Positions 1,956 to 60,188 of a stretch of DNA of 64,000 nt are shown in pieces. Under the pieces are notes generated by a model, which had not been told where the DNA came from, did not search any database, and was given only the letters and a program-made list of their open reading frames with translations. The stretch's first letter is position 1. Every line of letters begins with the position of its first letter. Source of the stretch: Gammaproteobacteria bacterium (GTDB lineage: Bacteria > Pseudomonadota > Gammaproteobacteria > SZUA-140); contig JADJWH010000001.1 in the NCBI GenBank assembly GCA_016716465.1, positions 685,414 through 749,413 on the forward strand, written 5' to 3'. A program made the position numbers and the translations under genes.

Positions 1956-2019
1956 GGGTAATGGGTAAACGGTAACAGGGCAGGGTGTCTGGAGTGGAAA
2001 GTCTCCATCACCCATCGCC
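1956..2019. repeat. Inverted heptamer-array hairpin (GGTAATG/GGTAAAC ... CATCACC/CATCGCC) between ureD and ureA
   Basis: Direct reading: tandem 7-mers are followed by their reverse complements. Confidence 0.35.
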
Positions 2020-2051
2020 AGACGTTCGTCAAACAGCCAGGAGAATGCGAA

Positions 2052-2354
2052 GTGGAGCTGACCCCACGCGAGAAAGACAAGCTGCTGATCTTCACCGCCG
2101 GGCTGCTGGCCGAGCGGCGCAAGGCCCGCGGCCTCAAGCTGAACTATCCCGAGGCGATCGCCTATATCTCGGCGGCTATCCTCGAGGGCGCGCGTGATGG
2201 TTGCAGTGTGGCGGAACTGATGAGCTACGGCGCCACGCTGCTGACGCGCGCGGATGTGATGGACGGGATCGCCGAGATGATCCCGGAGGTTCAGGTCGAG
2301 GCGACCTTCCCCGATGGCACGAAGCTCGTCACCGTGCATAACCCGATCGTCTGA
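2052..2354 (+). CDS. ureA: Urease gamma subunit
   Basis: [43 protein letters not shown] start with an AGGAGA Shine-Dalgarno sequence 8 nt upstream. Confidence 0.95.
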
Positions 2355-2363
2355 AGAACCCGA

Positions 2364-2424
2364 GGATGGTGATGTGAGGCAAGGTTCCGGGATTTCCATC
2401 ACCCATCACTCATTCCCTATCACC
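2364..2424. repeat. Inverted heptamer-array hairpin (GGTGATG family) in the ureA-ureB spacer
   Basis: ggatggtgatgtgagg ... ccatcacccatcactcattccctatcacc. Confidence 0.45.
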
Positions 2425-2455
2425 CCTTGTCATACCGGCTAACGAGGAGACCAGA

Positions 2456-2761
2456 ATGATTCCCGGCGAAATCAGCACCGCGGACGGCGAAATCGAACTC
2501 AACGCCGGGCGCGATACCGTGACACTCAGCATCGCGAACTCCGGTGACCGGCCGATCCAGGTCGGCTCGCATTACCATTTCTACGAGACCAACGCGGCGC
2601 TGGCCTTCGACCGCGAGCAGGCGCGCGGCTTCCGCCTCAATATCCCGGCCGGCACCGCGGTGCGCTTCGAGCCGGGCCAGTCGCGCACGGTCGAACTGGT
2701 GCGCTACGCGGGCGCCGGGCGCGTCTACGGATTCAACGCAAAGATCATGGGGAAGCTCTGA
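2456..2761 (+). CDS. ureB: Urease beta subunit
   Basis: [46 protein letters not shown]. Confidence 0.95.
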
Positions 2762-2762
2762 C

Positions 2763-4466
2763 GTGACTACGATACTGCGGCGCGCGTACGCGGAGATGTA
2801 CGGGCCCACGGTCGGCGACCGTGTCCGGCTGGGGGATACCGAGCTCTGGCTCGAGGTCGAGCAGGACCGCACGGTCTACGGCGAGGAGGTCAAGTTCGGC
2901 GGCGGCAAGGTCATTCGCGACGGCATGGGCCAGAGCCAGGCCAGCGCGAAACAGGTGGTCGATTGCGTCATCACCAACGCGCTGATCGTGGACCACTGGG
3001 GCATCGTCAAGGCGGATATCGGCCTCAAGGACGGGCGCATCGCGGGCATTGGCAAGGCGGGCAACCCCGATGTCCAGCCCGGGATCGATATCGTCATCGG
3101 TCCCGGCACCGAGGTCATCGCCGGCGAGGGCCTGATCGCGACCGCCGGCGGCATCGATGCCCACATCCACTTCATCTGCCCGCAACAGGTGGAGGACGCG
3201 CTGATGTCCGGCGTCACCACCATGATCGGTGGCGGCACCGGACCGGCGGCCGGCACCAACGCCACCACCTGCACGCCGGGGCCGTGGAATATCGCCCGGA
3301 TGCTGCAGGCCGCGGATGTGCTGCCGATGAACCTCGGTTTTCTCGGCAAGGGCAACGCAAGCCTGCCGCAAGCCCTGGAAGAGCAGGTCGCCGCCGGGGC
3401 GATGGGTCTGAAACTGCATGAGGACTGGGGCACGACGCCCGCCGCGATCGACAACTGCCTGGAGGTGGCGGAAAAGTACGACGTGCAGGTCGCCATCCAC
3501 ACCGATACTTTGAACGAGTCGGGTTTCGTCGAGGATACGCTCGCCGCCTTCAAGGGGCGCACCATTCATACCTATCACACCGAAGGCGCCGGCGGTGGCC
3601 ACGCGCCGGACATCATCAAGGCCTGCGGTGAGGCCAATGTGCTGCCGTCGTCCACCAATCCGACGCGCCCCTATACGGTGAACACGGTCGACGAGCACCT
3701 CGACATGCTGATGGTATGCCATCACCTCGATCCGGGCATTCCGGAGGATGTCGCCTTCGCCGAGTCGCGCATCCGGCGCGAGACCATCGCCGCGGAAGAC
3801 ATCCTGCACGACCTCGGCGCCTTCTCGATGATCAGTTCGGATTCGCAGGCCATGGGCCGCGTCGGCGAGGTGATCACGCGCACCTGGCAGACGGCGCACA
3901 AGATGAAGGTCCAGCGCGGCGCGCTCGCGGGCGATCCCGCGCGCCACGATAATGGACGCATCAAACGCTACGTCGCCAAATACACCATCAATCCGGCGAT
4001 CGCCCACGGCGTCGCCGCCGATGTCGGCTCGATCGAGACCGGAAAGCTCGCCGACATCGTGCTGTGGCGCCCGGCCTTCTTCGGCGCCAAACCGTCGCTG
4101 ATCCTCAAGGGCGGCCTGATCGCCGCCGCGCCTATGGGCGACCCCAATGCCTCAATCCCGACGCCGCAACCGGTGCACTATCGACCCATGTTCGCCGCCC
4201 TCGGCGGGGCCTGCGCCGCGACCAGCGTGACTTTCGTGTCGCAGGCCGCGCAGCAGTCGGCGGTCGGCAGTCGCCTGGGCCTCAGGAAGCGCACGGTGCC
4301 GGTGTCCGGGACCCGCAATATCGGCAAGGCCGATATGATCCACAACGATTACCGGCCGCGGATGGAAGTCGATGCGCAGACCTACCAGGTGCGTGCCGAC
4401 GGTGAGTTGCTGGTATGCGATCCGATGAGCGTGCTGCCACTGGCGCAGCGGTATTTTCTGTTTTGA
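2763..4466 (+). CDS. ureC: Urease alpha subunit (GTG start)
   Basis: [29 protein letters not shown]...[13 protein letters not shown]...MVCHHLD. The long upstream frame from 2544 overlaps ureB; GTG 2763 directly follows the ureB stop. Confidence 0.95.
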
Positions 4467-4577
4467 AGATGTGAGGAGTGAGGTGTTCAAGAATAAACGC
4501 TTGCCTTTCGAATCCGTCAATGGGTCTCGCCGATTATTAGGACGTATGTTTCCTTTGCTCCTCACTCCGCACATCTC
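4465..4577. repeat. Inverted heptamer arrays (GTGAGGA/GTGAGGT ... CCTCACTCC) bracketing the ureC-ureE spacer
   Basis: gaagatgtgaggagtgaggtg ... gctcctcactccgcacatctc. Confidence 0.45.
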
Positions 4578-4585
4578 GCCGAACG

Positions 4586-5800
4586 ATGTTGAAACTGACC
4601 GCAATCGTTCAATCCACTGAGGCCCCTGCCGCCATGCTGACGCTGAGCTTCGACCAGCGCCAGCGCAGCCGTCTGCGCGTGACGCTGGACGACGGGCGCG
4701 AGGCCGCGTTGCTGCTCGAGCGCGGCGCCGTACTGCGCGGGGGGTGCTGTCTGCGTTCGGACGACGGGGTCATCGTCCGGGTCATTGCCGCACCGGAGCC
4801 CGTGTCCACGGTCCCGTGTCCGGACCCGTACCTGCTGGCGCGTGCCTGCTACCACCTCGGCAACCGCCACATCCCGCTGCAGATCGGTACCGGCTGGGTG
4901 CGGTATCAGCAGGACCACGTGCTGGACGACCTTGTGCACGGCCTCGGCCTGCGGCCGGTGGCGGAGTCCGCGCCCTTCGAGCCGGAGGCCGGGGCCTATG
5001 GCCATCATGCCCCTGAGACGGGTGGCGGCACGGAACCCTCGCTTGCCCCCGAAGGGCGCGTCAGACCGGAGGAACACGCGGCGCTGCACGAATCCGCCCA
5101 CGCATTCGGTCCGGCGTTGCTGGCGCTGCTGCGCCTGACGAGTTCGTCCCTGCCGGTGGGTTCCTTTGCCTATTCACAGGGCATGGAATACGCCGTGGAA
5201 CACGGCTGGATCAGCGACGAGGCGAGTGCGCGCGCCTGGATCGCGGGCCTGTTGCGGCACAGCCAGGCCCTCCAGGACATGCCGCTGTTGCTGCGCCTGT
5301 GCCGGGCCTGGGAGTCGGATGATGCCGCAGAGGTACAGAGGTGGAATGCGCGCCTGCTGGCCGCGCGCGAATCGCGCGAACTTCGCGCCGAGGAACTCAA
5401 TGTCGGCACGGCCCTGGCGCGCCTGCTCGCCGATCTCGGCGTGGCCAGGGCGGGCATGACGCCGTCGGAACAAGTCCCGAAGACGACAGACGGGATGCCG
5501 CCCTTGGGATATCTCGCGATGTTCGCCCTGGCCTGTGTCGAATGGAAAATTCCGCCGCGGGATGCGGTCTGCGGATACCTGTGGTCCTGGTGCCAGAACC
5601 AGGTTACCGCCGCGATCAAGCTGGTGCCGCTGGGCCAGACCGCGGGTCAGCGCATCCTGCAGACCCTGATCGAGTCGATCCCGGCCGTGGCCGATCAGGC
5701 CTTCGCGCTGGAAGACGAGGATATCGGTTTCACCGCCCCCGGTCTGGCGCTCGCAAGCGCCCGGCACGAGGGGCAGTACACACGGCTGTTTCTGTCTTAG
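4586..5800 (+). CDS. ureEF: UreE-UreF read as one continuous 404-aa ORF: a UreE domain with a His-rich linker, then a UreF domain
   Basis: N-terminus: MLKLTAIVQST...RSRLRVTLDDGREAALLLERG...HIPLQIG (UreE). C-terminus: LLALLRLTSSSLPVGSFAYSQGMEYAVEHGWI...VPLGQTAGQRIL (UreF). No stop codon lies between them in this frame. An internal TTG at 5117 could alternatively start ureF. Confidence 0.75.
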   Translation: MLKLTAIVQSTEAPAAMLTLSFDQRQRSRLRVTLDDGREAALLLERGAVLRGGCCLRSDDGVIVRVIAAPEPVSTVPCPDPYLLARACYHLGNRHIPLQIGTGWVRYQQDHVLDDLVHGLGLRPVAESAPFEPEAGAYGHHAPETGGGTEPSLAPEGRVRPEEHAALHESAHAFGPALLALLRLTSSSLPVGSFAYSQGMEYAVEHGWISDEASARAWIAGLLRHSQALQDMPLLLRLCRAWESDDAAEVQRWNARLLAARESRELRAEELNVGTALARLLADLGVARAGMTPSEQVPKTTDGMPPLGYLAMFALACVEWKIPPRDAVCGYLWSWCQNQVTAAIKLVPLGQTAGQRILQTLIESIPAVADQAFALEDEDIGFTAPGLALASARHEGQYTRLFLS

Positions 5801-5810: not shown

Positions 5811-5836
5811 GGGGACAGATTTATAAATCTGTCCCC
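5811..5836. repeat. 25-bp palindromic REP-like element GGGGACAGATTT-N-AAATCTGTCCCC
   Basis: ggggacagatttataaatctgtcccc, in the ureF-ureG spacer. Confidence 0.8.
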
Positions 5837-5875
5837 ATTTACTGAGTCCTTAGTCCTCTCTTTAACGAGGTAATT

Positions 5876-6494: not shown

Positions 6495-6644
6495 CAGGAC
6501 CAGGGACTAAGCAACAGTAGATCCCGCTGATTACGGAGGGAGGGTTGGCCTAGATACTGCGTGGAGATAGAGAGTGTTAAGTCCCCGGATTCCGCTGCGC
6601 TCCATCCGGGCTACAGTTTAATATTTTAATTAGTCCGGGTCCTG
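6495..6644. repeat. Composite intergenic structure: a GGACTAA-family inverted pair flanking a CCCGGATT...ATCCGGG hairpin repeat (6573-6604)
   Basis: caggaccagggactaagc ... ttagtccgggtcctg; the inner element is ccccggattccgctgcgctccatccgggctac. Confidence 0.4.
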
Positions 6645-6683: not shown

Positions 6684-8996
6684 ATGCGGATGCCCGCGGC
6701 ACCCGTACCGACGCAATATCCCGTCCTCCGCCAACTCAAACGCCCCGCGCTGATCCTGGCGGGGTTGCTGATCATATATGCGCTCGCGGGATTTATCCTC
6801 CTGCCCGCAATCGCGCGCTCGCAGGCCGTGGATATCCTCAAGGAGCGTTACCGTCTCGATCTGGAGATCGGCAAGCTTCGCTTCAACCCGTTCACCTTTT
6901 CCGCGCGTCTCGAAGGCGTGAGCCTGAGCGATCCGGGCGGCGAGCGGCTGCTGGCGTTCGCGGCCTTTGGCGCGGATTTCGAGCTGCGCTCGCTGATCGA
7001 TCGGGCCCTGGTCTTCAAGTCGGTCACCTTGAGCCGGCCCTATGTGCACATTCATCTGCGTGAGGACGGGACGGTGAACCTGGCGCGGGCCTTCGCGTCA
7101 CCGCCGGGCGAGACTGCCGATGACGGACCCGCTTCGGCGCCCCCGGCACTGATCATCGGGGACATCGCGCTGAACGGTGGAGACCTGCACTTCACGGACA
7201 ATTCTCAGGGCCGTGATTTCGATCAGCACTTCACGCCGCTCGACCTGCACGTACAGCGCTTCTCGACGCGGCCGGAGGATCGCTCCGATCTCGTCGGCCT
7301 GAACATCAGTATCGGTGAGAGCGGGCGGCTAACGGTCTCGGGCGATCTGTCGGCCATCCCGACCCGTTTCGATATTCAACTCGCTGCACGCGGCATCCCG
7401 CTGGCCATCTTCCAGCCCTATCTTGAGGATCGCCTGCCGGCACGTATCAGTGACGGGTCGCTCGACTTCGATCTCTCGCTCGCGCAGGGGGAGCCGGGAC
7501 AGACCTCGCGACTGAAGCTGAGCGGCAAGGCCGCCATTCGCGGGCTCGCGGTCAAGCTCAAGGAGCGCGACGATGTGGCGCTGGCCTGGGAAGAGGTGGC
7601 GGCGAACGGCATGACGCTGGATCTGAGCCCCGATCGTCTCGCCATCGGCGAGATCGCCATCCGCGGGCTCGATACCTCGTTCAAGATCTACGCCGACGGC
7701 CGCACGAACGTCAGCGAGATGGCGCGCCAGGCGCGCGGGGAGTCGCCGGAATCCGCGGCGATGGCGCCGGAGGAACCGGCAGCGGCGGGTACGGATTCGA
7801 CGACGTCCGGCTTTCCATACGCAATCGACCGCGTCGTCGTCGCCGGTTCGCACCTGATGTTCAGCGACACACAGATCCAGCCGAACGTGCGGATACGCAT
7901 CGAGGATCTTGCCGGCGAGATACGCGGCATCGCCTCCGCTCCCGAAGCGCAAACGACCATCGCGCTCACCGGCCGCGTCGGCGAATATGGGAAGGCGAAG
8001 ATCGACGGCGCGGCGCGACTCGCGGCGCCCAGGCAGGACCTGAAGGCCAGGGTCACGTTTGATAACGTCGAGCTGACCTCGTTCTCGCCCTACGCGGGCA
8101 AGTTCGCCGGTTACACCATCGACAAGGGCAAGCTGTTCCTCGATCTGGACTACACCCTGGCCGGCAGCCGCATCCGGGGCGAGAATCACGCCGTGTTCGA
8201 TCAGTTCGAACTCGGCGACAGGGTCGACAGCGCGGATGCCCTCAAGCTGCCCATCAAGTTCGCGCTGTCGCTGCTGCGCGACCGCGAAGGCCGCATCGAC
8301 ATCGATCTGCCGGTGGAAGGCGATGTCGACGCGCCCGGTTTCAGGCTGGGTCCGCTGGTCGTCAAGGCGCTGGTCAATCTGGTCACGCGTATCGTCACCG
8401 CGCCTTTCGATTTCATCGCCGGCATGTTCGTTGGCGGGCCGGAGATGGAATACGCCGTATTCGCGCCGGGCGACGGCGCGCTGCCCGGCGCGGAGCGCGA
8501 AAAGATCCTGCCCCTGTCGCGCGCGCTTGCCGAACGGCCGCGCCTCGTGGTCGAGGTCCAGGGCTGGGCGGATCCCGGCGCCGATGCCGTCGCCCTGCGG
8601 CAGGGCAAGTTCGATGCCTTGCTGGCCGCCGCAGGCCCGCCCACGGACGCCGCGCTGGTCACCGCGTACGACGGTTTTTTCGGCGCCGGCGCCGTGGCCG
8701 CGTTGCGCACCGAACTTGCGGCCGGAGCCCGGTCCGATCCGGCGGCGGAGCCTGCCGGAGAGATGCCCGCCGATCCCGAGGCAGCGTTCCGGGCCGAGTT
8801 GAGCAATCGTCTGCTCGCCGCCCAGCCGGTGACCGACGAGGAACTGGCGGCGCTCGCCTATGCCCGCGGCGAACAGGTGATGGGCCTGCTCGTACAGGAC
8901 GGCGGCGTGGAGGCGGAGCGCGTCTTCGTGCGCCGGGGCGAGATTGCCCGCGACGGCGAGGGCACGAGGGCGAAACTGATCCTCGATGCGCGCTAG
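6684..8996 (+). CDS. Large membrane-anchored protein, DUF748/AsmA-like (function unknown)
   Basis: 770-aa ORF. N-terminal TM helix LILAGLLIIYALAGFILLPAI, then a long beta-rich, low-complexity body. The family assignment is from memory only. Confidence 0.55.
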   Translation: MRMPAAPVPTQYPVLRQLKRPALILAGLLIIYALAGFILLPAIARSQAVDILKERYRLDLEIGKLRFNPFTFSARLEGVSLSDPGGERLLAFAAFGADFELRSLIDRALVFKSVTLSRPYVHIHLREDGTVNLARAFASPPGETADDGPASAPPALIIGDIALNGGDLHFTDNSQGRDFDQHFTPLDLHVQRFSTRPEDRSDLVGLNISIGESGRLTVSGDLSAIPTRFDIQLAARGIPLAIFQPYLEDRLPARISDGSLDFDLSLAQGEPGQTSRLKLSGKAAIRGLAVKLKERDDVALAWEEVAANGMTLDLSPDRLAIGEIAIRGLDTSFKIYADGRTNVSEMARQARGESPESAAMAPEEPAAAGTDSTTSGFPYAIDRVVVAGSHLMFSDTQIQPNVRIRIEDLAGEIRGIASAPEAQTTIALTGRVGEYGKAKIDGAARLAAPRQDLKARVTFDNVELTSFSPYAGKFAGYTIDKGKLFLDLDYTLAGSRIRGENHAVFDQFELGDRVDSADALKLPIKFALSLLRDREGRIDIDLPVEGDVDAPGFRLGPLVVKALVNLVTRIVTAPFDFIAGMFVGGPEMEYAVFAPGDGALPGAEREKILPLSRALAERPRLVVEVQGWADPGADAVALRQGKFDALLAAAGPPTDAALVTAYDGFFGAGAVAALRTELAAGARSDPAAEPAGEMPADPEAAFRAELSNRLLAAQPVTDEELAALAYARGEQVMGLLVQDGGVEAERVFVRRGEIARDGEGTRAKLILDAR

Positions 8997-9050: not shown

Positions 9051-10262
9051 CTACACCGCGCGCCGCGCGGCTTGCGAGCCCCAGATGAAAGACGCGTGCC
9101 GCCGCCACGCATCGGCGAGCGCGTGGCGGATATCGTCCGGTCCCAGGGCGGCGAGCCGGGCCAGGCGTTCGTTGAGGGCTGTGACACGGTCCAGGTAGGC
9201 GATCTCGTGCGCGATGCGTTCCATTACGCACTCGGGGTCGTCTTCCTCCAGCGTCCAGCGCGCCTGCAGTTGAGCGAGATGGCGAACCAGCTCCTCGCGC
9301 CCCGGTCCATGCTGGATCAGCGCTTCCATGACGGATTCGACCGCCGTGGCGCAGCGTCCTTCCATGCCGGGTTCGCAGCGCACGCGGATCCACCAGAGAC
9401 CGCAATCGCTATAGAGCTCCAGACGGGACTCGACTGCATATGCGAGCCCGAGCCGTTCGCGCAACTCGTATTGCAGACGTGCGGAGAGCGGCGCCCCGGC
9501 GGCGATCTGTTCCGCGAGCAGCAATGCCGGATAGGCCGGTTCGCCCAAGGTCGGTACCGGCATCAGCCAGAGCAGGTCGGAACCGTCGCCGCCCGCGGGT
9601 CCGTGCAGGGAGCAGGGCGTGAATTCCGCTGGCGGCGCATCGCGCTGATCCCCGGCGGGCAGTTGCTCCAGCGCACGACAGGCCTCCACCAGTTCGTCAT
9701 GACGGACATCGCCCGCCGCCACGACCCAGATCGCGGGACCGCGCAGACGGGACGCGCAATATTCCTGCACTGCCGCGGCATTGGCCCGGGGTCTGTTCCC
9801 GCTCCCCAGGATCGGCCGGGCGAGCGGGTGTCCATCCCAGACGCGCCGGAGCGCGAAGGCCTCCTGCTCGTCCCACAGGGACTGCGAGGCCATCCGGCGC
9901 TCATGCCATACCGCGGGCAGTTCGGCGGCAAGTTCCTTCGCCCCGAGGCGCGGTTCGAGCAGCAGGGCGGCGAACAGGCCTGCCAGCGCGCCCACGCGAT
10001 CACCGGTCACCAGGCCGTGAAAGGCGGTAAGTTCACGCATGGTGCGGGCATTGACATGACCGCCCAGCACCGCGAATTGGTCGGTGTAACGACCGCCGCC
10101 GTGGAACAGCAGATGCTCGAGCAGGTGCGCGTAGCCATCCTGGCCGGGGGTTTCGTGGCGTGAACCGTTGCGCAACCAGAGCCCGAGTGACGCGCTGCGC
10201 CGGCCGGGCAGCGGGCGGCTCAGGACGCGGACACCATTCGCGAGTGTGGTACAGGCCGTCAT
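9051..10262 (-). CDS. M16-family (pitrilysin/PqqF-like) zinc metallopeptidase, last gene of the riboswitch-controlled ABC operon
   Basis: Inverted zinc motif HLLEHLLFHG (HxxEH), then VLGGHVNARTMRELTAF, matching the M16 N-terminal signature. The start overlaps the ATPase stop (ATGA, 10259-10262). Confidence 0.75.
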   Translation of the reverse strand: MTACTTLANGVRVLSRPLPGRRSASLGLWLRNGSRHETPGQDGYAHLLEHLLFHGGGRYTDQFAVLGGHVNARTMRELTAFHGLVTGDRVGALAGLFAALLLEPRLGAKELAAELPAVWHERRMASQSLWDEQEAFALRRVWDGHPLARPILGSGNRPRANAAAVQEYCASRLRGPAIWVVAAGDVRHDELVEACRALEQLPAGDQRDAPPAEFTPCSLHGPAGGDGSDLLWLMPVPTLGEPAYPALLLAEQIAAGAPLSARLQYELRERLGLAYAVESRLELYSDCGLWWIRVRCEPGMEGRCATAVESVMEALIQHGPGREELVRHLAQLQARWTLEEDDPECVMERIAHEIAYLDRVTALNERLARLAALGPDDIRHALADAWRRHASFIWGSQAARRAV

Positions 10263-12975: not shown

Positions 12976-13137
12976 ATTTTCCCCTTGAGCTGTCAGTTCT
13001 GTTGCGTCAGACCGAGTGCCGGGGAGGTATGCGCCGAGACGGACCGGAGAAGCCGGCAGGCACCGTCAGGACATCACACATCCGCGGCCTGTGCCTCCCG
13101 GGCTTTTATCCCGCCGTGTATCCGAGCTCTCCGAACC

Positions 13138-13166
13138 GGGGACAGATTTATTTATCCGATCTGTCC
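13138..13166. repeat. Degenerate REP-like palindrome inside riboswitch 2 (P2-region hairpin)
   Basis: ggggacagatttatttatccgatctgtcc. Confidence 0.5.
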
Positions 13167-13216
13167 GCGTGTCGTGCCGCCCGGACTGCATCCCTTGGAC
13201 CAGCCATCCCTGGGAA

Positions 13217-13241
13217 CGGGGACAGATTTAAAATCTGTCCC
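13217..13241. repeat. 25-bp REP-like palindrome forming the P1a-position hairpin of riboswitch 2
   Basis: ggggacagatttaaaatctgtcccc, directly downstream of CUAGGGUUCCGG on the minus strand. Confidence 0.8.
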
Positions 13242-13600
13242 CGGTACAAGAGACCGGAACCCTAGATGCTCTGAACAGGGTTTAGCAATTAGCATGCCGC
13301 GCCCATGGGCAAGGCCTGTGGCGCGAGCTAACAGATTGACTGTTCTTGCATTCGCCTGTGCGATCTTCACCGTGGCTCGCGCATGACTGAGCCCGCGCGA
13401 CAGTCCGTCGCGAATAATTGCCCCATCATGGTGAGGCGACACTTCGAAATGCGCGGAAATGGTGCCTGATAAGCGAGTCAGGGCCGGGCGCACGGCGCGT
13501 GTTCCGCGGGAATCCGTGCCGGCATTCCATCATCGAACTGTTGGCTATTCCATCACTTAGCCGATGGCACGCATTGTCCCGGTTCATGCCTGGTGCAGGA

Positions 13601-13616: not shown

Positions 13617-13666
13617 ATCTCACAGGGCAAGCGGCCATGGCCGCGATAATCAGCCTATCAGGATGA

Positions 13667-13793
13667 CTAGGGTTCCGGTTCCGCGTGGTACGCGGGGACA
13701 GATGTAAATCCGTCCCCGATGGCGATGCGGGGCGACTGGTCCGAGAGTCATCGGCCTCCGGCGCGGAGGTTACACGGCGGGATAAAAGCCCGG
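13667..13793 (+). promoter_or_regulatory. Guanidine-I (ykkC-type) riboswitch aptamer in the gdmH leader
   Basis: CUAGGGUUCCGG ... GGUCCGAGAG ... ACACGGCGGGAUAAAAGCCCGGGAGAG. All three hallmark ykkC blocks are present in the correct order. Confidence 0.8.
13694..13717. repeat. REP-like palindrome (one arm mismatch) embedded in the P1a-position hairpin of riboswitch 1
   Basis: ggggacagatgtaaatccgtcccc. Confidence 0.6.
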
Positions 13794-13817
13794 GAGAGCA
13801 GGCCTCTCTCGACTTTT
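13794..13817 (+). terminator. Riboswitch expression-platform intrinsic terminator
   Basis: gagagcaggcctctctc followed by gacTTTTGTT. The 5' half overlaps the aptamer 3' end (CCCGGGAGAG), the classic ligand-ON arrangement. Confidence 0.5.
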
Positions 13818-15121: not shown

Positions 15122-15136
15122 GTTCATGCGCAGATG

Positions 15137-33160: not shown

Positions 33161-33294
33161 TCAGTGAGGCGTGAGGCGTTAGGTGTTAGGTGTGAGGAGG
33201 AAAAGCCAACAAAACTATTTAAAAAAGTACTTGCCAGGAAAAATGCAGCGATCATGCTCTTGTTGCCTCACGCCTCACGCCTCACGCCTCACGC
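33161..33294. repeat. Long inverted heptamer-array hairpin (GTGAGGC x4-5 ... GCCTCAC x4) around an AT-rich spacer
   Basis: agtgaggcgtgaggcgttaggtgttaggtgtgagg ... cctcacgcctcacgcctcacgcctcacgcc. Confidence 0.6.
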
Positions 33295-34185
33295 CTAGTC
33301 TCTGAACCTCCGCGTCAGATCTCCGTACGCATCGATGCGCCGATCGCGCAGATAGGGCCACATCCGCCGCACGGCCTCGCCGTGCGCGCGGTCGATCTCG
33401 ACGACCAGCACCTCGGGTTCGGCCGCGGCTTCGGCGAGGATCTCGCCCTGCGGTCCGCAGATGAAACTGTCGCCCCAGAATTCGATGCCCTTCGACTGGC
33501 CGGAGGGGTCGGGCTCGCGGCCGACGCGGTTGCAGGCGGCGACCGGGATGCCGTTGGCGATGGCATGGGCGCGCTGGATGGTGCGCCAGGCATCGCGCTG
33601 GCGTTCGCGTTCGGGCTGCTCGTCGCGCGGGTCCCAGCCGATGGCGGTGGGGTAGAGCAGGATCTCGGCGCCGGCCAGCGCCATCAGGCGCGCGGCCTCG
33701 GGATACCACTGGTCCCAGCACACCAGCACGCCGAGGCGTCCGGCTGAGGTGTCGATCGGCGTGAAGCCGAGGTCGCCCGGCGTGAAGTAGAATTTCTCGT
33801 AATAGCCGGGATCGTCCGGGATGTGCATCTTGCGATAGGTGCCGGCCAGCGACCCGTCGCGCTCGAAGACGACGGCGGTGTTGTGGTAGAGCCCGCTGGC
33901 GCGGCGCTCGAACACCGAGCCGACGATCACGATGCGCAGCTCGGCGGCGAGCGCGGCGAGCGCGCGGGAGGTCGGACCCGACGGGATCGGCTCGGCCAGG
34001 TCGAAGACGGCGGGATCCTCGGTCTGGCAGAAATACGGTCCGGCATGCAGTTCCTGCAGCAGGACCAGCCCGGCGCCGCGCGCCGCCGCCGCGCGGATGC
34101 CGGCCACGCTGCGCGCGAGGTTATCGTCGCGGTCGGCGCCGCAGGCCTGCTGTACCAGTCCGAGTTTGATCGCGGTCGTGCTCAT
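33295..34185 (-). CDS. aguB: N-carbamoylputrescine amidase (nitrilase superfamily)
   Basis: MSTTAIKLGLVQ...catalytic cysteine in VLVCWDQWYPE. Confidence 0.85.
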   Translation of the reverse strand: MSTTAIKLGLVQQACGADRDDNLARSVAGIRAAAARGAGLVLLQELHAGPYFCQTEDPAVFDLAEPIPSGPTSRALAALAAELRIVIVGSVFERRASGLYHNTAVVFERDGSLAGTYRKMHIPDDPGYYEKFYFTPGDLGFTPIDTSAGRLGVLVCWDQWYPEAARLMALAGAEILLYPTAIGWDPRDEQPERERQRDAWRTIQRAHAIANGIPVAACNRVGREPDPSGQSKGIEFWGDSFICGPQGEILAEAAAEPEVLVVEIDRAHGEAVRRMWPYLRDRRIDAYGDLTRRFRD

Positions 34186-46383: not shown

Positions 46384-46391
46384 GAATAAAG

Positions 46392-46529
46392 AACTCAGGA
46401 CTCAGGACTCAGGACTCAGGACCGGGGACTGAGAAAAACAATACGGTTCTGTTTTTGGCATCGAGCCTGGATAACCATCTACGAAAAAAAATGTTTTCAC
46501 TTGGCCCTTAGTCCTGAGACCTCAGTCCC
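46392..46529. repeat. Inverted GGACTCA heptamer arrays ((AGGACTC)x4 ... CTTAGTCCTGAGACCTCAGTCC) between ubiG and gph
   Basis: The right array supplies the last two codons and the TGA stop of ubiG; the left array abuts the gph start. Confidence 0.6.
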
Positions 46530-47259
46530 GTGTCTTGACGGCATGCACCAGATAATTCACATCCACGTCATGTCCCAGCGCGTAGCGCCGCGTGAGCGGA
46601 TTGTAGCTGAGGCCGGCAAGTTCACGCACTTCAAGTCCGGCGGCGCGCAGCCAGCGGCCGAGTTCCGAGGGGCGGATGAAGCGGGCATAATCATGCGTGC
46701 CCTGGGGCAGCATGCGCAGCACGTATTCCGCGCCGACAATGGCGAGCAGATAGGCCTTGGGGGTGCGGTTCAACGTCGAGAAGAACAGGTGCGCGCCCGG
46801 ACGCGCAAGGTCCGCGCAGGACTGGACCAGTGCGGCCGGATCGGGCACATGCTCGAGCAGTTCCATGCAGGTGACGACGTCCGCCGTGGCGGGCGACTGC
46901 GCCGCCAGTTCCTCGGCGCCGATGCAGCGATAGTCGACCTGTCGCCCGGTTTCGAGCAGGTGCAGGCGCGCAACCGAGAGCGCGGACGCCGCCAGATCGA
47001 TGCCGGTGACGCTGGCGCCGAGCCCGGCCATACCTTCGGCGAGAAGTCCGCCGCCACAACCGACATCGATGACCGCCTTCCCCGCGATCCGCGCGCGCGC
47101 GTCGATGAAACCCAGGCGCAACGGATTGATGTCGTGCAGCGTCTTGAACTGTCCCTGGGGATCCCACCAGCGCGCCGCCAGGGCGTCGAACTTGGCGACT
47201 TCGGCGGGGTCGACATTGGTCCTGGTTTCGCTCATATCGATCAATGTGTCATGCCTCAC
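46522..47259 (-). CDS. ubiG: Ubiquinone biosynthesis O-methyltransferase
   Basis: [19 protein letters not shown]-binding motif. Confidence 0.9.
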
Positions 47260-47337
47260 GTCTCAACTCATCGCTCTTCCCGATCTTCTCCCGCCACATC
47301 TCGGCATTCACCAGGATGGCATCCTCGTCCAGGGTCG

Positions 47338-54160: not shown

Positions 54161-54189
54161 CCTCAGGACCGAGGACTTAGGACTGAGTA
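54161..54189. repeat. GGACTNA heptamer array directly after the serC stop
   Basis: cctcaggaccgaggacttaggactgag. Confidence 0.5.
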
Positions 54190-54233
54190 GGCAACACCAT
54201 TCACCCATCACCTGTTGTGATTGCTGAGGTGTC

Positions 54234-55400
54234 ATGTACAAGATTCTGACCCTGAATAACATATCCGTCGTCGGGCTCGAGCGGTTTCCGCGCGAATCGT
54301 ACGAGATCGCATCCGAGATCCAGCATCCGGACGCGATCCTGCTGCGTTCGTTCAAGATGCACGGCATGGCGCTTCCCGAAACGCTGAAGGCGGTCGGACG
54401 GGCGGGAGCGGGTGTGAACAATATTCCCGTTCCTGAGCTGAGCAAGCGCGGCATACCCGTGTTCAACGCCCCGGGGGCGAACGCCAATGCGGTGAAGGAA
54501 CTGGTCGTCGCCGGCATGCTGCTCGCCTGCCGCAACATCTGCCAGGCCTGGGATTTCGCCCGCAACCTGGAAGGCGACGATGAATCCATCGGAAAGCAGG
54601 CCGAGGCGGGCAAGAAGGACTACGTCGGTTTCGAGTTGCCGGGCCGCACCCTCGGGGTGATCGGACTCGGCGCGATCGGCATCAAGGTCGCCAATGTCGC
54701 CATCGATCTCGGCATGCGCGTGATCGGTTATGACCCCAAGATCACGGTGCAGAGCGCCTGGCGGCTGTCTTCCGAGGTACAGCAGGCCGCAAGCCTCGAC
54801 GACATGCTCACGAAGGTCGATTTCGTCACCTTCCACGTGCCGCTGAACGACGAGACCCGCGGCATGATCAATACGGACCGCCTCAAGCGCATGAAGAATG
54901 GCGCGGTGATCCTGAACTTTGCCCGCGAAGGCATCGTCGACACCGCCGCGGTACGCGCGGCCATCGACGCCGGCAAGATCTATTCCTATGTGTGTGATTT
55001 CCCCAGCCATGAACTGAAGGGCCACAAGCGAGTGATCGCCTTGCCGCACCTTGGCGCCTCCACCGATGAGGCGGAAGAGAACTGCGCCGTCATGGTGGCG
55101 GATCAGGTGCGCGACTACCTCGAGAACGGCAACATCTTCAACGCGGTCAATTTCCCGGAGGTGCAGATGCCGCGCACCGAGGGTTACCGGATCGGCATCG
55201 CCAACGCCAATGTACCCAATATGGTCGGCCAGATTTCGACCGTGATGGCGCAGGCGGGCCTGAACATCATCGACCTGCTCAACAAATCACGCGGCGAAAT
55301 CGCCTACACCCTGGCCGACGTCGACCGCAAGATCCCCATCGAAGTCATCGAAGGCATCCGCAAGATCGACGGGGTGCTGAATGTGCGGGTCATTGATTAA
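54234..55400 (+). CDS. serA: D-3-phosphoglycerate dehydrogenase-like 2-hydroxyacid dehydrogenase with a C-terminal ACT domain
   Basis: GVIGLGAIGIKVA NAD-binding motif; ACT-like C-terminus. Confidence 0.75.
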   Translation: MYKILTLNNISVVGLERFPRESYEIASEIQHPDAILLRSFKMHGMALPETLKAVGRAGAGVNNIPVPELSKRGIPVFNAPGANANAVKELVVAGMLLACRNICQAWDFARNLEGDDESIGKQAEAGKKDYVGFELPGRTLGVIGLGAIGIKVANVAIDLGMRVIGYDPKITVQSAWRLSSEVQQAASLDDMLTKVDFVTFHVPLNDETRGMINTDRLKRMKNGAVILNFAREGIVDTAAVRAAIDAGKIYSYVCDFPSHELKGHKRVIALPHLGASTDEAEENCAVMVADQVRDYLENGNIFNAVNFPEVQMPRTEGYRIGIANANVPNMVGQISTVMAQAGLNIIDLLNKSRGEIAYTLADVDRKIPIEVIEGIRKIDGVLNVRVID

Positions 55401-55405
55401 AAAAT

Positions 55406-55547
55406 CAGGACTTAGGACTCAGGACTAAGGACTAAGTTAAATGCCAATAATAAAAAATAAATCCAAAGCAGCCGAGCGATTTGTTTCAGGCGCTAAATTT
55501 AGCCTGCGTGTTTTCACTCAGTCCTTAGTCCTGAGTCCTTAGTCCTG
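55406..55547. repeat. Inverted GGACTNA heptamer arrays bracketing the serA-pheA spacer (which holds the inner palindrome gctaaatttagc)
   Basis: caggacttaggactcaggactaaggactaag ... cactcagtccttagtcctgagtccttagtcctg. Confidence 0.65.
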
Positions 55548-55557
55548 TATTTTGATC

Positions 55558-56640
55558 ATGTCCGACGAAGACCTGCTGAAAACCATCCGCGCCCGCATCG
55601 ATCAGATCGACGGGAAGCTGCAGGAGCTGATCACCGAGCGGGCGCGATGCGCGCTCGAGGTGGCGCGGCTCAAGCATGCCTCCGGCGATATGGATTACTA
55701 TCGGCCGGAGCGCGAGGCGCAGGTGCTGCAGACGGTGCTCGGTCGCAACCAGGGGCCGCTCGACGACGAAGTGGTGGTGCGCCTGTTCCGCGAGATCATG
55801 TCTGCCTGCCTGGCGCTGCAGCGCCCGATCGCCGTGGCCTATCTCGGACCGGAAGGCACCTTCACCGAGGCCGCGGTATTCAAGCATTTTGGCCAGGCGG
55901 TGAGCGCGCGCCCGCTGGCCGCCATCGACGAGGTCTTCCGCGACGTCGAAGCAGGCGCCGTGGATTACGGTGTGGTTCCGATCGAAAACTCCTCCGAGGG
56001 GGCGGTCGATCACACGCTCGACATGTTCATGAGTTCTCCGCTGAAGATCTGCAGCGAGATCGAGTTGCGTATTCATCACAATCTGATGGGCAAGGCGGAC
56101 GCGACGGGCGGGATCAATCGTGTCTATGCGCACCAGATGGCCCTGGCGCAGTGCCGCGAATGGCTCAACGCGCACCTCTCCGGCGTCGAATGCATCCCGG
56201 TCAGCAGCAACGCCGAGGCCGCGCGTCGGGCGCAGGAGGAAGCGGGCGCGGCCGCGATCGCCGGCACCAACGCGGCCGCCATCTACGGCCTGGAGATTCT
56301 CTCGTCCAATATCGAGGACAAGCCGGACAACACGACCCGCTTCCTGGTGATCGGTCGCAAAATCCCCGCGCCGAGCGGACGCGACAAGACTTCCCTGCTG
56401 GTCTCCACGTCCAACAAGCCCGGCGCGCTTTATCGCCTGCTGAAACCCCTGGCTGAACACGGGATTTCCATGAGCCGTATCGAATCGCGGCCTTCCCGGC
56501 GCGAGATGTGGGAATATGTCTTTTTCATCGACATCGAGGGCCATGCCCAGGACGAGAAGGTGGCGGCGGTCATCCGGATCCTGGAAAATGAGGCGGCTGT
56601 GCTCAAGGTGCTGGGTTCGTACCCCTGCGCCGTGTTGTAG
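55558..56640 (+). CDS. pheA: Bifunctional chorismate mutase / prephenate dehydratase
   Basis: MSDEDLLKTIRARIDQIDGKLQELI (chorismate mutase domain)...prephenate dehydratase domain...ACT domain. Confidence 0.9.
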   Translation: MSDEDLLKTIRARIDQIDGKLQELITERARCALEVARLKHASGDMDYYRPEREAQVLQTVLGRNQGPLDDEVVVRLFREIMSACLALQRPIAVAYLGPEGTFTEAAVFKHFGQAVSARPLAAIDEVFRDVEAGAVDYGVVPIENSSEGAVDHTLDMFMSSPLKICSEIELRIHHNLMGKADATGGINRVYAHQMALAQCREWLNAHLSGVECIPVSSNAEAARRAQEEAGAAAIAGTNAAAIYGLEILSSNIEDKPDNTTRFLVIGRKIPAPSGRDKTSLLVSTSNKPGALYRLLKPLAEHGISMSRIESRPSRREMWEYVFFIDIEGHAQDEKVAAVIRILENEAAVLKVLGSYPCAVL

Positions 56641-56710
56641 GGGACGGACTGAAGTCCGTCCCCATGAACGCTCATAAACTGAGTCGGGGACGGATTTGAG
56701 ATCCGTCCCC
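56640..56710. repeat. Two REP-like palindromes carrying compensatory arm substitutions (GGGGACGGA...TCCGTCCCC)
   Basis: ggggacggactgaagtccgtcccc and ggggacggatttgagatccgtcccc. An A-to-G change in the left arm is matched by a T-to-C change in the right arm. Confidence 0.75.
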
Positions 56711-56730
56711 GACACCTAAATTACACCTGA

Positions 56731-57768: not shown

Positions 57769-57792
57769 CGCGTCGACCCGCGCCGCCCCGAC

Positions 57793-58689
57793 ATGTCCCT
57801 TGCCGCTCCCGCACAACGACTGACCATCATCGGCGTCGGCCTCATCGGGGGTTCCCTCGCGCGGGCGCTTCGACGCGAGCATCCGGGTATCGAGGTCATC
57901 GGTTGCGGCCGGCATTTGCCCAATCTGGAGCGCGCGCGGGAACTGGGCGTCATCGATCGTTACGAGACCGACCCGGGACGCGCCGTTGAAGGTTCAGACC
58001 TGGTTGTGGTGGCCGTGCCGGTCGGCGCCATCGGACCGATATTCGCGGCGATCGCCGGCCATCTCGCCGACGGCGCCGTCGTCACCGACGTCGGCAGCAC
58101 CAAGGGGAACATCGTGGATGCCGCGCGCCGCAGCCTGGGCGTGCGGCTGGCGGATTTCGTCCCTGGACACCCCATCGCGGGCACGGAACGCAGCGGCGTC
58201 GAGGCCTCGTTCGCGGAACTGTTTCAAGGCTGCCGGGTAATCCTGACACCGCTTGCGGAGACGCGCCGAACGGCGCTCGAACGCGTGCGCGCGCTGTGGT
58301 CACTCGCGGGCGCGCGCGTAAGCGACATGGACGTGCGGCACCATGATGAAGTCCTGGCCGCCACCAGTCACCTGCCGCACCTGCTCGCCTATACACTGGT
58401 GGACACCCTGGCTCGCATGGACGACAGCGAGGAGATCTTCGACTACGCCGCGGGTGGCTTCCGGGATTTCACCCGCATCGCATCCTCCGATCCGGCCCTG
58501 TGGCGCGATATCAGCATCGCCAACCGCGACGCGATGCTCGATACGGTCCAACGCTTCACGGATAACCTTGCCGCCGTCACAGAGGCGCTGCAGCGCAACG
58601 ATGGCGATACGCTGATGAAGGTGTTCGCGCGCGCGAAGGAGGTGAGGGATCGGTTCGCGGAAAAGGGCAAAGTGAAGAGCGAGGAATGA
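57793..58689 (+). CDS. tyrA: Prephenate/arogenate dehydrogenase
   Basis: LTIIGVGLIGGSLARAL. Confidence 0.85.
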   Translation: MSLAAPAQRLTIIGVGLIGGSLARALRREHPGIEVIGCGRHLPNLERARELGVIDRYETDPGRAVEGSDLVVVAVPVGAIGPIFAAIAGHLADGAVVTDVGSTKGNIVDAARRSLGVRLADFVPGHPIAGTERSGVEASFAELFQGCRVILTPLAETRRTALERVRALWSLAGARVSDMDVRHHDEVLAATSHLPHLLAYTLVDTLARMDDSEEIFDYAAGGFRDFTRIASSDPALWRDISIANRDAMLDTVQRFTDNLAAVTEALQRNDGDTLMKVFARAKEVRDRFAEKGKVKSEE

Positions 58690-58693
58690 AACG

Positions 58694-58764
58694 TTAGGTG
58701 ATGAGTGAAGGGTGATGGGTGATCATAACCAGTTCATTGACCCATCACCCATCACCCATAACCA
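58694..58764. repeat. GGTGATG heptamer-array hairpin between tyrA and aroA
   Basis: ttaggtgatgagtgaagggtgatgggtgatcataacc ... gacccatcacccatcacccataacc. Confidence 0.65.
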
Positions 58765-58778
58765 TCTTCAAAGTTGCA

Positions 58779-60188
58779 ATGACGACTAAAGAACATATCT
58801 TCGACATCACCCCCGGCGGCCGCCTGAGCGGTGAAATCCGCGTTCCCGGCGACAAGTCGATTTCGCACCGCTCCATCATGTTCGGCTCGCTGGCCGAGGG
58901 AGTCACCGAGGTGGAGGGGTTCCTGGAGGGTGAGGACAGCCTGGCGACACTGGCGGCGTTCCGCCGCATGGGTGTCGCCATCGACGGGCCGGCACAGGGG
59001 CGGGTCACCATTCGCGGCGCAGGCATGCGCGGGCTGAGTGCGCCCGACGGCCCGCTCGATCTGGGCAATTCCGGGACCTCGATGCGCCTGATGGCCGGGC
59101 TGTTGTCCGCGCAGTCCTTCGATACTGAACTGACCGGCGACGCCTCGCTGTCGCGCCGGCCGATGCGCCGGGTGACACAACCGCTGGCATCGATGGGCGC
59201 GCGTATCGAGACGGAGGCCGCGGGCACGCCGCCGCTGCGCATTCGCGGCGGATCGCCGCTGCGCGGCATACGCTACGACATGCCGGTCGCAAGCGCCCAG
59301 GTCAAATCCGCGCTGCTGCTGGCCGGGCTCTATGCCGACGGCGAGACCTGCGTGACCGAGCCCGCGCCCACGCGCGATCACACCGAACGCATGCTGACCG
59401 CCTTCGGTTATCTGGTCACGCGCCACCACAACACCGTCTGCGTGAAGGGCGGAGGGCGGCTCAATCCGACCCGCATTGCGATCCCGGCGGATATTTCCTC
59501 GGCGGCGTTCTTCCTGGTCGGAGCCGCGATTGCGCCGGGGTCCGACGCGACGCTGACCGATGTCGGCATCAATCCGACGCGCATCGGCGTGATCAACATC
59601 CTGCAGCAGATGGGCGCGCGCATCGATATCCTCAACAAGCGCATGTTCGGCGGCGAACCGGTGGCCGACCTGCGCGTGCGCGCGGGCATGCTCAAGGGCA
59701 TCGACATCCCGATCGAGCAGGTCCCGCTGGCGATCGATGAATTTCCCGCACTCTTCATCGCCGCGGCCTGCGCCGAAGGCCGGACGGTGCTGACCGGCGC
59801 GGAGGAACTGCGCGTCAAGGAAAGCGACCGCATCCAGGTCATGGCCGACGGCCTGCGGCGGCTGGGCGTCATGGCCGAGCCGACGCCGGACGGGATTGTC
59901 ATCGAAGGGAAGGGCGTAGCCGGTGCCAAGGGGACAGATTTAAAATCTGTCCCCAATGGCGCAACTTCTGTCCCCGAACATCAGGCGGTATTTTCCGGTG
60001 GTGAGGTCGAGAGCCACGGCGATCACCGCATCGCGATGGCCTTCGCGGTGGCCGGCTTTCGTGCCGCAGGCCCGATTCGCATCCGCGACTGCAAGAATGT
60101 GGATACCTCGTTCCCGGGGTTCGTGGGACTGGCGCGGAAATCCGGATTAAAAATCAAAACACAGGACTTAGGACTCGGGACTGAGTGA
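58779..60188 (+). CDS. aroA: 3-phosphoshikimate 1-carboxyvinyltransferase (EPSP synthase) carrying an in-frame ~24-aa repeat-derived insertion
   Basis: ITPGGRLSGEIRVPGDKSISHRSIMFGSLA...SHGDHRIAMAF. The insertion KGTDLKSVPNGATSVP is encoded by a REP copy. The last 8 codons and the stop are encoded by a heptamer array. Confidence 0.9.
   Translation: MTTKEHIFDITPGGRLSGEIRVPGDKSISHRSIMFGSLAEGVTEVEGFLEGEDSLATLAAFRRMGVAIDGPAQGRVTIRGAGMRGLSAPDGPLDLGNSGTSMRLMAGLLSAQSFDTELTGDASLSRRPMRRVTQPLASMGARIETEAAGTPPLRIRGGSPLRGIRYDMPVASAQVKSALLLAGLYADGETCVTEPAPTRDHTERMLTAFGYLVTRHHNTVCVKGGGRLNPTRIAIPADISSAAFFLVGAAIAPGSDATLTDVGINPTRIGVINILQQMGARIDILNKRMFGGEPVADLRVRAGMLKGIDIPIEQVPLAIDEFPALFIAAACAEGRTVLTGAEELRVKESDRIQVMADGLRRLGVMAEPTPDGIVIEGKGVAGAKGTDLKSVPNGATSVPEHQAVFSGGEVESHGDHRIAMAFAVAGFRAAGPIRIRDCKNVDTSFPGFVGLARKSGLKIKTQDLGLGTE
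59930..59975. repeat. REP-like palindrome plus a duplicated right arm, inserted in-frame within aroA
   Basis: ggggacagatttaaaatctgtcccc aatggcgcaa cttctgtcccc. Confidence 0.8.
60162..60187. repeat. GGACTNA heptamer array encoding the aroA C-terminus and stop
   Basis: caggacttaggactcgggactgagtga reads Q D L G L G T E stop. Confidence 0.6.

Follow-up and report, generated by a model that had tools for sequence, protein, structure and literature searches.

Tandem arrays of seven-nucleotide units have been described in the spacers of several bacteria. Xanthomonas genomes carry about 185 GGGAATC arrays each, 89-93% of them intergenic, with four units as the commonest length, and the GGGGAYT repeats of Nostoc act similarly (PMC4692102). 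Copy number in these heptamer repeats ranges from 2 to more than 20 and is commonly about 4 (PMC4692102). There are 70-75 convergent inverted pairs per genome, in which the G-rich strand starts just 3' of a stop codon (PMC4692102). Most Xanthomonas arrays are transcribed, and GGGAATC forms a G-quadruplex (G4) in vitro (PMC4692102). At the same gene pair, related species differ in the copy number and sequence of the repeats, which have no tie to mobile elements, show no functional bias among neighbouring genes and serve a function 'still to be elucidated' (PMC4692102). Here we analyse intergenic heptamer cassettes in a 64,000-nucleotide stretch of a Gammaproteobacteria bacterium (GCA_016716465.1, contig JADJWH010000001.1, positions 685,414 to 749,413), hereafter the window. 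A cassette runs from a stop codon through a G-rich array, an AT-rich core and a C-rich array to a start codon, and it often fills the spacer wholly. A preliminary description, made from the letters alone, had not recognised this architecture as a described class; convergent intergenic heptamer pairs with the same polarity had, however, already been published (PMC4692102). We lean towards reading the cassettes as lineage-specific, fast-turnover palindromes, comparable to repetitive extragenic palindromic (REP) elements, that are tolerated in spacers, with RNA effects that would be generic and not gene-specific.

The arrays are confirmed as a genuine feature of the DNA between genes. Tandem Repeats Finder (TRF) reports period-7 arrays at 33164-33197/33265-33296, 46393-46422, 55407-55436/55520-55547 and 58697-58723/58740-58763, on both sides of the 33.2, 55.4 and 58.7 kb spacers and on one side at 46.4 kb. 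In our own period-7 scan the window held 6 strong arrays (score at least 11), against 0.055 expected from 200 Markov-1 simulations with a maximum of 2. The dominance of this period is clear, as the same scan of the window at periods 4, 6, 8 and 10 gave 0 arrays. Location was assessed at a score of at least 8: spacers, 11% of the window, contain every one of the 7 arrays (p about 2e-7), and the single apparent exception arose from a mis-called aroA start. A repeat finder recovered the inverted pairing, with arms of 24-42 nt that are 81-88% complementary and 19-79 nt apart. The units belong to the families GGACTNA, GGTRATG and GTGAGGN, the three named in the preliminary description, and the sequence reads as claimed at each of its four example sites. 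Its count of at least nine paired spacers was too generous. Five are clear cassettes; about five others are degenerate, heterologous or one-armed remnants.

The history of the cassettes can be read from orthologous spacers. A PheA search returned 61 loci from uncultured Gammaproteobacteria, represented by Chromatiales- or Acidiferrobacterales-like metagenome-assembled genomes (MAGs). The closest contigs, L001 (JADLET010000009, 92% amino acid identity) and L052 (JADLCS010000012, 91%), align collinearly with the window, with a nucleotide identity of about 88% (range about 84-89%). They hold 9 and 13 period-7 arrays per 21 kb, respectively, all from the window's three families. These families are absent from the next relatives, at 76% amino acid identity or less, where the serA/pheA spacer measures 0-110 nt. 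The distant MAG L013 has inverted heptamer pairs built from other units, AGTGGCT and GGGNAAA.

Among the window and its two sisters, one family stands where another is found in an orthologous spacer. Between serA and pheA the window has a GGACTNA cassette, L001 a GGTGATG cassette and L052 a GTGAGGC cassette. The tyrA/aroA spacer is occupied by GGTGATG in the window and by GGACTWA in both L001 and L052, and the gph/ubiG spacer by GGACTNA in the window and L052 and by GGTGATG in L001. Between gyrA and serC, the window and L001 have 8 nt where L052 has a 140-nt GTGAGGM cassette, its array running on from the native GGAGTAA, which combines a Shine-Dalgarno (SD) sequence with a stop codon. In the spacer 5' of ubiG, a GGACTAA cassette stands in L052 and a GGTTATG cassette in L001, and the window has only a possible decayed remnant; all three families appear to have occupied this spacer. 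Replacement of family by family at a single spacer has occurred within a gene divergence of about 12%.

Other changes accompany replacement. A tandem duplicate at L052 13094-13480 includes a copy of the tyrA tail, and L001 has a triplicate cassette at 8381-8690. The tyrA/aroA cassette of L001 aligns full length with that of L052 only as its reverse complement, so the unit has been flipped. Between the window and L052, the orthologous gph/ubiG cassettes differ at the variable position of the left arm, altered in every unit alike (GGACTCA x4 against GGACTAA x3), and the right arm has no matching change. A concerted change of a whole arm without compensation in its partner points to homogenisation by slippage, not to compensatory evolution. 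The aroA/cmk cassette is common to the window and L001 and alignable, with a decayed right arm, so the hairpin is not kept there. When 26 cores were compared by BLAST, all against all, the matches were confined to orthologues and local tandem duplicates. Turnover this rapid at orthologous spacers argues for selfish or near-neutral DNA confined to spacers and not for conserved regulators. The preliminary description had proposed that the arrays may set polarity or mRNA processing and stability between cistrons, and had suggested a comparison with related species. That comparison gives no operon-tuned conserved signal, as the same spacers vary in family, presence, copy, orientation and decay. 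It does not support the proposal: sister genomes carry different families, none, or duplicated, flipped or decayed cassettes at one spacer, and the next relatives have short spacers without cassettes.

The window contains cassettes of very different preservation. RNA folds were computed in the direction of the flanking genes and compared with shuffled sequence (z). The best-preserved GGACTNA cassette (55400..55553, plus strand) fills the entire serA/pheA spacer with, in order, an A-run, 4 units, the junction AGTTAAA, a 70-nt AT-rich core, TTTTCACT, 4 units and a T-run. Its predicted stem is about 36 bp, and the fold of 55400-55549 reaches -68.3 kcal/mol (z -10.2). The ubiG/gph spacer has a GGACTCA/GGACTGA cassette (46390..46533, minus strand) that is 86% identical to the orthologous L052 300-470 and folds with a z of -5.3 (46387-46534(-)). 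Between the aguB-like amidase and DAHP synthase genes lies a GTGAGGC cassette (33164..33296, minus strand) of 5 versus 4.6 units around a core of about 68 nt (33155-33300(-): -55.1 kcal/mol, z -4.6). The GGTGATG cassette of the tyrA/aroA spacer (58697..58763, plus strand) has about 3.9 versus 3.4 units and a 16-19 nt core (58690-58781: z -4.4), with the aroA ATG at 58779. The GTGAGGA-type cassette that occupies the ureC/ureE spacer (4469..4575, plus strand) has arms GATGTGAGGAGTGAGG and CCTCACTCCGCACATC and a 74-nt core (4467-4585: -39.9 kcal/mol, z -3.0). Predicted stems measure 21-36 bp in four of these five clear cassettes and 18 bp in the fifth.

The remaining spacers fold at shuffle level (1956-2018, 2366-2425, 6495-6644, 54163-54212 and 60162-60294; z -1.3 to +0.7). 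A degenerate GGGTAAT-type cassette in the ureD/ureA spacer (1956..2018, plus strand; z -0.8) has left arm GGGTAATGGGTAAACGGTAAC and right arm CCATCACCCATCGC. The GGTGATG-type cassette between ureA and ureB (2366..2425, plus strand) combines a short left arm GGATGGTGATGTGAGG, a 16-nt core and a 4-unit right arm CCATCACCCATCACTCATTCCCTATCACC; a local stem is present, yet z is +0.7. The weak GGACTNA-type cassette 3' of ureG (6495..6644, plus strand) has arms CAGGACCAGGGACTAAG and TTAGTCCGGGTCCTG that flank a 118-nt core and pair in the minimum free energy fold, with a z of only -1.3. The serC/serA spacer keeps a heterologous remnant (54163..54212, plus strand) that joins a GGACTNA left arm, TCAGGACCGAGGACTTAGGACTGAG, to a GGTGATG right-arm end, CACCATTCACCCATCACC. 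Its homologue in L001 is formed by the ends of the triple cassette; the remnant retains the polarity and lacks the hairpin (z 0.1). An old GGACTNA cassette at the aroA/cmk junction (60162..60294, plus strand; z -1.1) has left arm CAGGACTTAGGACTCGGGACTGAGTGA and a decayed right arm, TTAATCCTTATCTCAAATCCCTAACGTC, at 60267-60294. The long hairpins of the preliminary description are thus predicted for the five fresh cassettes and not for these five remnant spacers. Directly 5' of ureG we read a lone C-rich arm, ACTGAGTCCTTAGTCCTC (5841..5858, plus strand), beside an GGGGACAGATTT palindrome (5811-5836) in the position expected for the left arm, here missing, of a GGACTNA cassette. The sequence GCCTCACGTCTCAACTCATCG at 47253-47273 resembles a decayed GTGAGGC-type right arm 5' of ubiG.

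Searches for known RNA signals gave little at the cassettes. At the Rfam gathering threshold none matched an RNA family, and no hammerhead was found despite the CUGANGA-like units. In E-value mode the sole cassette match was a spurious microRNA precursor at 4456-4589 (E 0.6). Consensus scans of 45.5-61.2 kb placed no terminator at cassettes and no promoter-like site in their cores, and the idea of an insulator made of a terminator plus a core promoter was dropped. Several GGACTNA cassettes finish in GATTTTT or GGTTTTT, and partial termination could still occur at such T-runs.

The G-rich arm comes first in all of the about 26 cassettes that we counted by eye across the window and its sisters L001 and L052 (26 of 26, binomial p=3e-8). 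Because the element is palindromic, this means that the G-rich strand runs from both flanking genes into the spacer. Heterologous pairs obey the same polarity, both at window 54163-54212 and in L157. Among the inverted pairs of all loci fetched, G-rich-first outnumbers C-rich-first by 35 to 7. Across all loci, 93 of 130 arrays have the 5' end of the G-rich strand nearer to a gene than the other end (medians 19 versus 97.5 nt), and solo arrays show a trend in that direction (17 to 7, p=0.06). A rule that puts the stop-bearing arm first (29 to 10) is confounded with this one. Since the Xanthomonas and Nostoc units have no stop codons, G-rich-first is the more general rule.

The families are also linked to one another. 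Single substitutions connect CTAAGGA (=GGACTAA), GTAAGGA, GTGAGGA, GTGAGGC/GTGAGGG and GTGATGG (=GGTGATG), and the variants occur in arrays; read from these sequences, the three families of units form a single mutational network. The families are marked by characteristic sequences at their outer ends (AAAAATCAGGACT...AGTCCTGATTTTT) and at their inner junctions (GGACTAAGTGAAAA...TTTTCACT; GGGTGATTAAA...TTTACCCATCACC). Forward units also match the SD complement TAAGGAGGTGATC over 6-7 nt (GGACTAA: TAAGGA; GGGTGAT: GGTGAT; GTAAGGA: TAAGGAG), for example at window 55405-55436 and 58697-58723 and at L052 7195-7235, and the C-rich arms thus mimic the 16S 3' tail. As an explanation this resemblance, although real, was rejected: it is post hoc, about 1-3% of heptamers would match by chance, and the units of other lineages lack the match.

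Family searches support the genes around the cassettes. They give the order ureD-A-B-C-E..G and confirm gyrA-serC-serA-pheA-DAHP synthase-tyrA-aroA-cmk-rpsA. Genes for DAHP synthase and the aguB-like amidase adjoin, both on the minus strand, and flank the 33.2 kb spacer. The gph and ubiG genes are confirmed as well, both on the minus strand. Placement within operons, as first described, holds in that cassettes lie between co-directional neighbours under the gene names given, with ubiG and gph corrected to the minus strand.

With TGA or TAA in every forward unit and a unit length, 7, that is not divisible by 3, three copies put a stop in all frames. A cassette can therefore overlap a gene and rewrite its last codons. 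AroA ends in ..KTQDLGLGTE in the window, ..KTQD in L001 and ..IQVRGEG in L052; UbiG ends in ..KTRD, ..KAG and ..KTQD, respectively. The window aroA frame runs through three GGACTNA units to TGA, its DLGLGTE and stop being encoded by the left arm at the aroA/cmk junction, and the L052 aroA end coincides with a GTGAGGG array. The outermost unit of the 46390-46533 cassette (GGGACTGA, minus strand) encodes the last residue and stop of UbiG. These C-termini, compared across three genomes, bear out the initial claim that arrays supply the last codons and stops of both proteins. At the other end of the cassettes, an SD is missing from pheA (ATG 55558) and aroA alike in all three genomes (55540-55560, 58764-58781 and equivalents). 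More distant relatives have serA/pheA spacers of 0-30 nt, a length that suggests translational coupling in the ancestor. A longest open reading frame (ORF) rule mis-starts aroA at a GTG (58719) within the array. For annotation, the starts and ends of genes that adjoin such arrays are prone to mis-calling, and cassettes are able to rewrite protein C-termini.

Inverted heptamer cassettes with genome-specific units are widespread, including in phage genomes. A metagenome scan for three GGACTNA units found at least 120 loci with GC contents of 0.33-0.73. Many are inverted pairs, many also hold other heptamer units as inverted pairs, and none among the loci listed belongs to the lineage of the window. 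On one unrelated metagenome contig (L127) two tRNA genes are separated by an inverted GGACTGA cassette at 9295-9480 that takes up their whole spacer, so the architecture is independent of translation and of flanking protein-coding genes. Viral contigs held 55 GGACTNA and 30 GGGTRAT stretches; composition-matched control heptamers gave 32, 17 and 14. An excess of only about 2-4 fold over these controls makes GGACTNA no more than modestly special and leaves a sequence-specific universal driver unsupported. In the IMG/VR phage contigs L284 (5416-10003) and L290 (137-13878), whose GC content is about 0.62, (TGCAGAA)n-TGAAAGACTTTTGA-(TTCTGCA)n hairpins recur in many near-identical copies. These cassettes lie directly 3' of stop codons, and either orientation of the loop occurs.

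The comparison of genomes shows that arrays change copy number and homogenise within an arm, and that entire cassettes duplicate in tandem, flip and decay. Tolerance may come from the G-rich arm, which always adjoins the upstream gene, and from the stop that three copies provide in every frame. The predicted stem would bring the upstream stop to about 5 nt and the downstream ATG to about 10 nt from its base. With stop and start at one stem base, and with pheA and aroA lacking an SD, translational coupling may be preserved at junctions that are 0-30 nt in relatives. In fresh transcribed copies, the predicted RNA stems would be RNase III substrates, 3'-exonuclease barriers or partial terminators, in line with the established behaviour of RNase III and REP elements. 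They could exert segmental control of mRNA stability, by analogy with REP elements and bacterial interspersed mosaic elements (BIMEs). A generic effect of fresh cassettes on mRNA processing or stability is plausible.

Several points weigh against this reading. Neutrality does not account for the strict polarity, and the conserved termini and junctions point to sequence-specific machinery or selection, not to pure slippage. The origin of the inverted partner arm and of a new core is likewise not accounted for. The near-perfect arms of fresh cassettes could equally reflect selection on the hairpin, and at the RNA level we infer effects throughout. The comparison covers three genomes and about 26 cassettes, a limited sample, and the Pfam and NCBIfam scans that found no transposase covered about 30 of the about 56 window ORFs, so that one may yet be encoded elsewhere in the genome.

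Other explanations divide over whether the cassettes move, act in RNA, act in DNA or are left behind by an enzyme. It is unlikely, in our judgement, that they are non-autonomous mobile elements resembling MITEs (transposable elements of the miniature inverted-repeat kind) or REP doublets forming hairpins (REPINs), with heptamer arrays as terminal inverted repeats, moved in trans by a transposase from elsewhere and preferring palindromes or spacers. Presence or absence and family replacement at the same spacer would fit such movement, as would the family-specific outer termini and inner junctions, the locus that holds one cassette in both orientations, the nested or heterologous arm combinations, and the phage contigs and genomes with several near-identical copies. 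Yet the 26 cores show no similarity between non-orthologous loci, filled and empty sites differ by no target-site duplication, and the scanned window ORFs include neither a transposase nor a REP-associated tyrosine transposase (RAYT, a Y1 transposase). In addition, the gyrA-end array of L052 resembles an outgrowth of the native GGAGTAA, and the Xanthomonas repeats are unlinked to mobile elements (PMC4692102). Somewhat more doubtful still is selection of the cassettes as intercistronic RNA devices, the view suggested by the preliminary description. These could be sites of processing, attenuators or terminators that act in both directions, or hairpins that couple neighbouring cistrons and fix their relative expression. 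Such devices are hard to reconcile with sister genomes that carry unrelated, no or decayed cassettes at the same junction, with the lack of compensatory evolution in the single orthologous pair examined, and with the negative terminator and promoter scans of 45.5-61.2 kb, although very stable hairpins are predicted exactly between stop and start codons and several GGACTNA cassettes have an A-run before and a T-run after them. Both pheA and aroA, without an SD in all three genomes, may depend on coupling, and the L127 cassette between tRNA genes also fits a role in RNA. The majority of Xanthomonas repeats are transcribed, but their neighbouring genes show no functional bias (PMC4692102).

Action at the level of DNA, through G4, cruciforms or protein-binding arrays that affect replication, transcription or nucleoid organisation, seems to us highly improbable. 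GGGTGAT and GTGAGGG arrays do fit a G3-N4 x4 motif, like the G4-forming GGGAATC of Xanthomonas (PMC4692102). GGACTNA and GTGAGGC, however, have only GG runs; as the three families behave alike, a quadruplex cannot be their common property. GGA motifs at 7-nt spacing resemble CsrA-type sites, and RNA-binding proteins were proposed by MacGregor for TAACTGA repeats (PMC4679880), but no candidate binding protein was found here. The arrays could also be the scars left by templated end-addition or repair as an active process, a reading that we consider very unlikely. Heptamers would be added to both 3' ends of a spacer break, in a telomerase- or reverse-transcriptase-like reaction, and the ends then joined; alternatively, R-loop-driven expansion 3' of stop codons would precede the joining. 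Polarity on both sides even with heterologous arms, filler-like cores and the lack of target duplication are the geometry expected from end-addition. If this were true, the arrays of Xanthomonas, cyanobacteria, Beggiatoaceae, phages and the present lineage would record one unrecognised enzymatic activity.

The window and its two sister MAGs form an unusually clear natural time-series of array evolution. Its stages are birth at a native SD-plus-stop, concerted arm change, duplication, inversion, decay and family replacement. This turnover occurs at the fixed essential-gene junctions gyrA-serC-serA-pheA-tyrA-aroA-cmk.

The window has other features of note. A second, conventional type of REP-like palindrome family, GGGGACAGATTT...AAATCTGTCCCC with the variant GGGGACGGAT, occupies other spacers (5811-5836, 13121-13253, 15095-15125, 25016-25101, 28950-29078 and 56641-56717). 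At 25016-25101 and 28991-29078 its halves are separated by a 34-nt unrelated core, the arms-plus-core layout of the heptamer cassettes. Two divergent guanidine-I riboswitches (13093-13276, minus strand; 13656-13798, plus strand) exceed the Rfam gathering threshold. The plus-strand copy precedes an arginase-family gene (13851-15044) near the urease operon, and riboswitch, arginase-family gene and urease together suggest a guanidine/urea nitrogen-salvage locus. An Rfam match to the Helicobacter 5' ureB small RNA (2912-3198, minus strand; 111.9 bits) lies antisense within the urease alpha-subunit coding sequence and most likely reflects conservation of that coding sequence, not a small RNA gene. 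The ORF at 22228-22713 (minus strand) has a third-position GC content (GC3) of 0.44 versus about 0.85 in its neighbours, AT-rich spacers on both sides and no match to a Pfam family; it could be foreign in origin or no real gene.

How these cassettes relate to described elements can now be set out. MITEs and the Foldback elements of eukaryotes have terminal inverted repeats and presence/absence polymorphism, and Foldback arms consist of short tandem subrepeats around a heterogeneous centre. The window cassettes share the terminal inverted repeats, the arms of short tandem subrepeats on either side of a heterogeneous centre and the presence/absence differences. Unlike MITEs, they show no target-site duplication at the filled versus empty gyrA/serC or ubiG-upstream sites, their cores share no internal sequence outside orthologues and local duplicates, as copies descended from a parent insertion sequence (IS) would, and no autonomous partner was detected. 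They also differ from an intrinsic terminator, with its short GC-rich stem, 3-8 nt loop and U-tract immediately 3'; the consensus scan of 45.5-61.2 kb placed no such terminator at a cassette.

REP, BIME and REPIN elements of enterobacteria and pseudomonads are genome-specific extragenic palindromes, often inverted doublets that form long hairpins (PMC3116915, PMC3333891). They comprise several families per genome, lie in transcribed spacers, stabilise upstream mRNA and modulate expression (PMC3116915, PMC3333891). The window cassettes are likewise genome-specific extragenic palindromes of several families with long predicted hairpins. A REP, however, is a unique, imperfect palindrome of 20-40 nt whose 5' tetranucleotide and doublet spacer are conserved, whereas the arms here are tandem heptamers of variable copy number. 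The unrelated cores of 16 to about 120 nt also depart from REPIN spacing, which is conserved. REPINs are tied to RAYT transposases, whose gene the repeats typically flank; the about 30 window ORFs scanned included no RAYT. The TAACTGA repeats of marine Beggiatoaceae, cyanobacteria and Bacteroidetes form hundreds of short intergenic arrays with a patchy phylogeny (PMC4679880). Almost all are direct (one indirect among 170) and lie immediately 5' of start codons in forward orientation, and MacGregor proposed a translational role for them (PMC4679880). Like these, the window units are stop-bearing intergenic heptamers of patchy distribution; in contrast to them, the arm that bears the stops comes after the upstream gene and has an inverted arm as its partner.

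Cyanobacterial short tandemly repeated repetitive sequences (STRR) and heptameric long simple sequence repeats (LSSR), as they are summarised in later papers, form several families per genome and are intergenic and lineage-specific (Mazel 1990, Mrazek 2007, via PMC4679880, PMC4692102). Polymerase slippage is their proposed generator in those summaries (via PMC4679880, PMC4692102), and Mrazek is cited for heptamers as the most abundant long simple repeats, which they are in many bacteria, possibly made by slippage (via PMC4679880). So far as these accounts describe them, the window lineage is similar in its several intergenic, lineage-specific heptamer families. The summarised arrays are mainly direct, whereas the window cassettes are defined by inverted pairing, a core and exact stop-to-start placement.

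The closest match is the Rehm type of Xanthomonas and Nostoc. The window has tandem 7-nt units (at least 2 copies, 1-2 variable positions), found by TRF and by our own scan, a strong bias to intergenic DNA, G-rich-first polarity and convergent pairs able to form stem-loops. It departs from the G4 subclass of that type, since four G3 tracts occur only in GGGTGAT and GTGAGGG arrays; GGACTNA and GTGAGGC, with GG runs and no G3 tracts, are members of the broader heptamer-array class instead. Unlike in Xanthomonas and Nostoc, where the units are different, two of the three window families cannot form a canonical G4, the units contain stop codons, three interrelated families coexist and replace one another within the lineage, and termini and junctions specific to each family mark the cassettes, whose cores reach about 120 nt. 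Judged by sequence organisation, the cassettes belong to the intergenic heptameric repeats and inverted pairs known from Xanthomonas, Nostoc and other cyanobacteria. The architecture itself is already described; newly documented are the units themselves, the network of three families and the series of turnover events.

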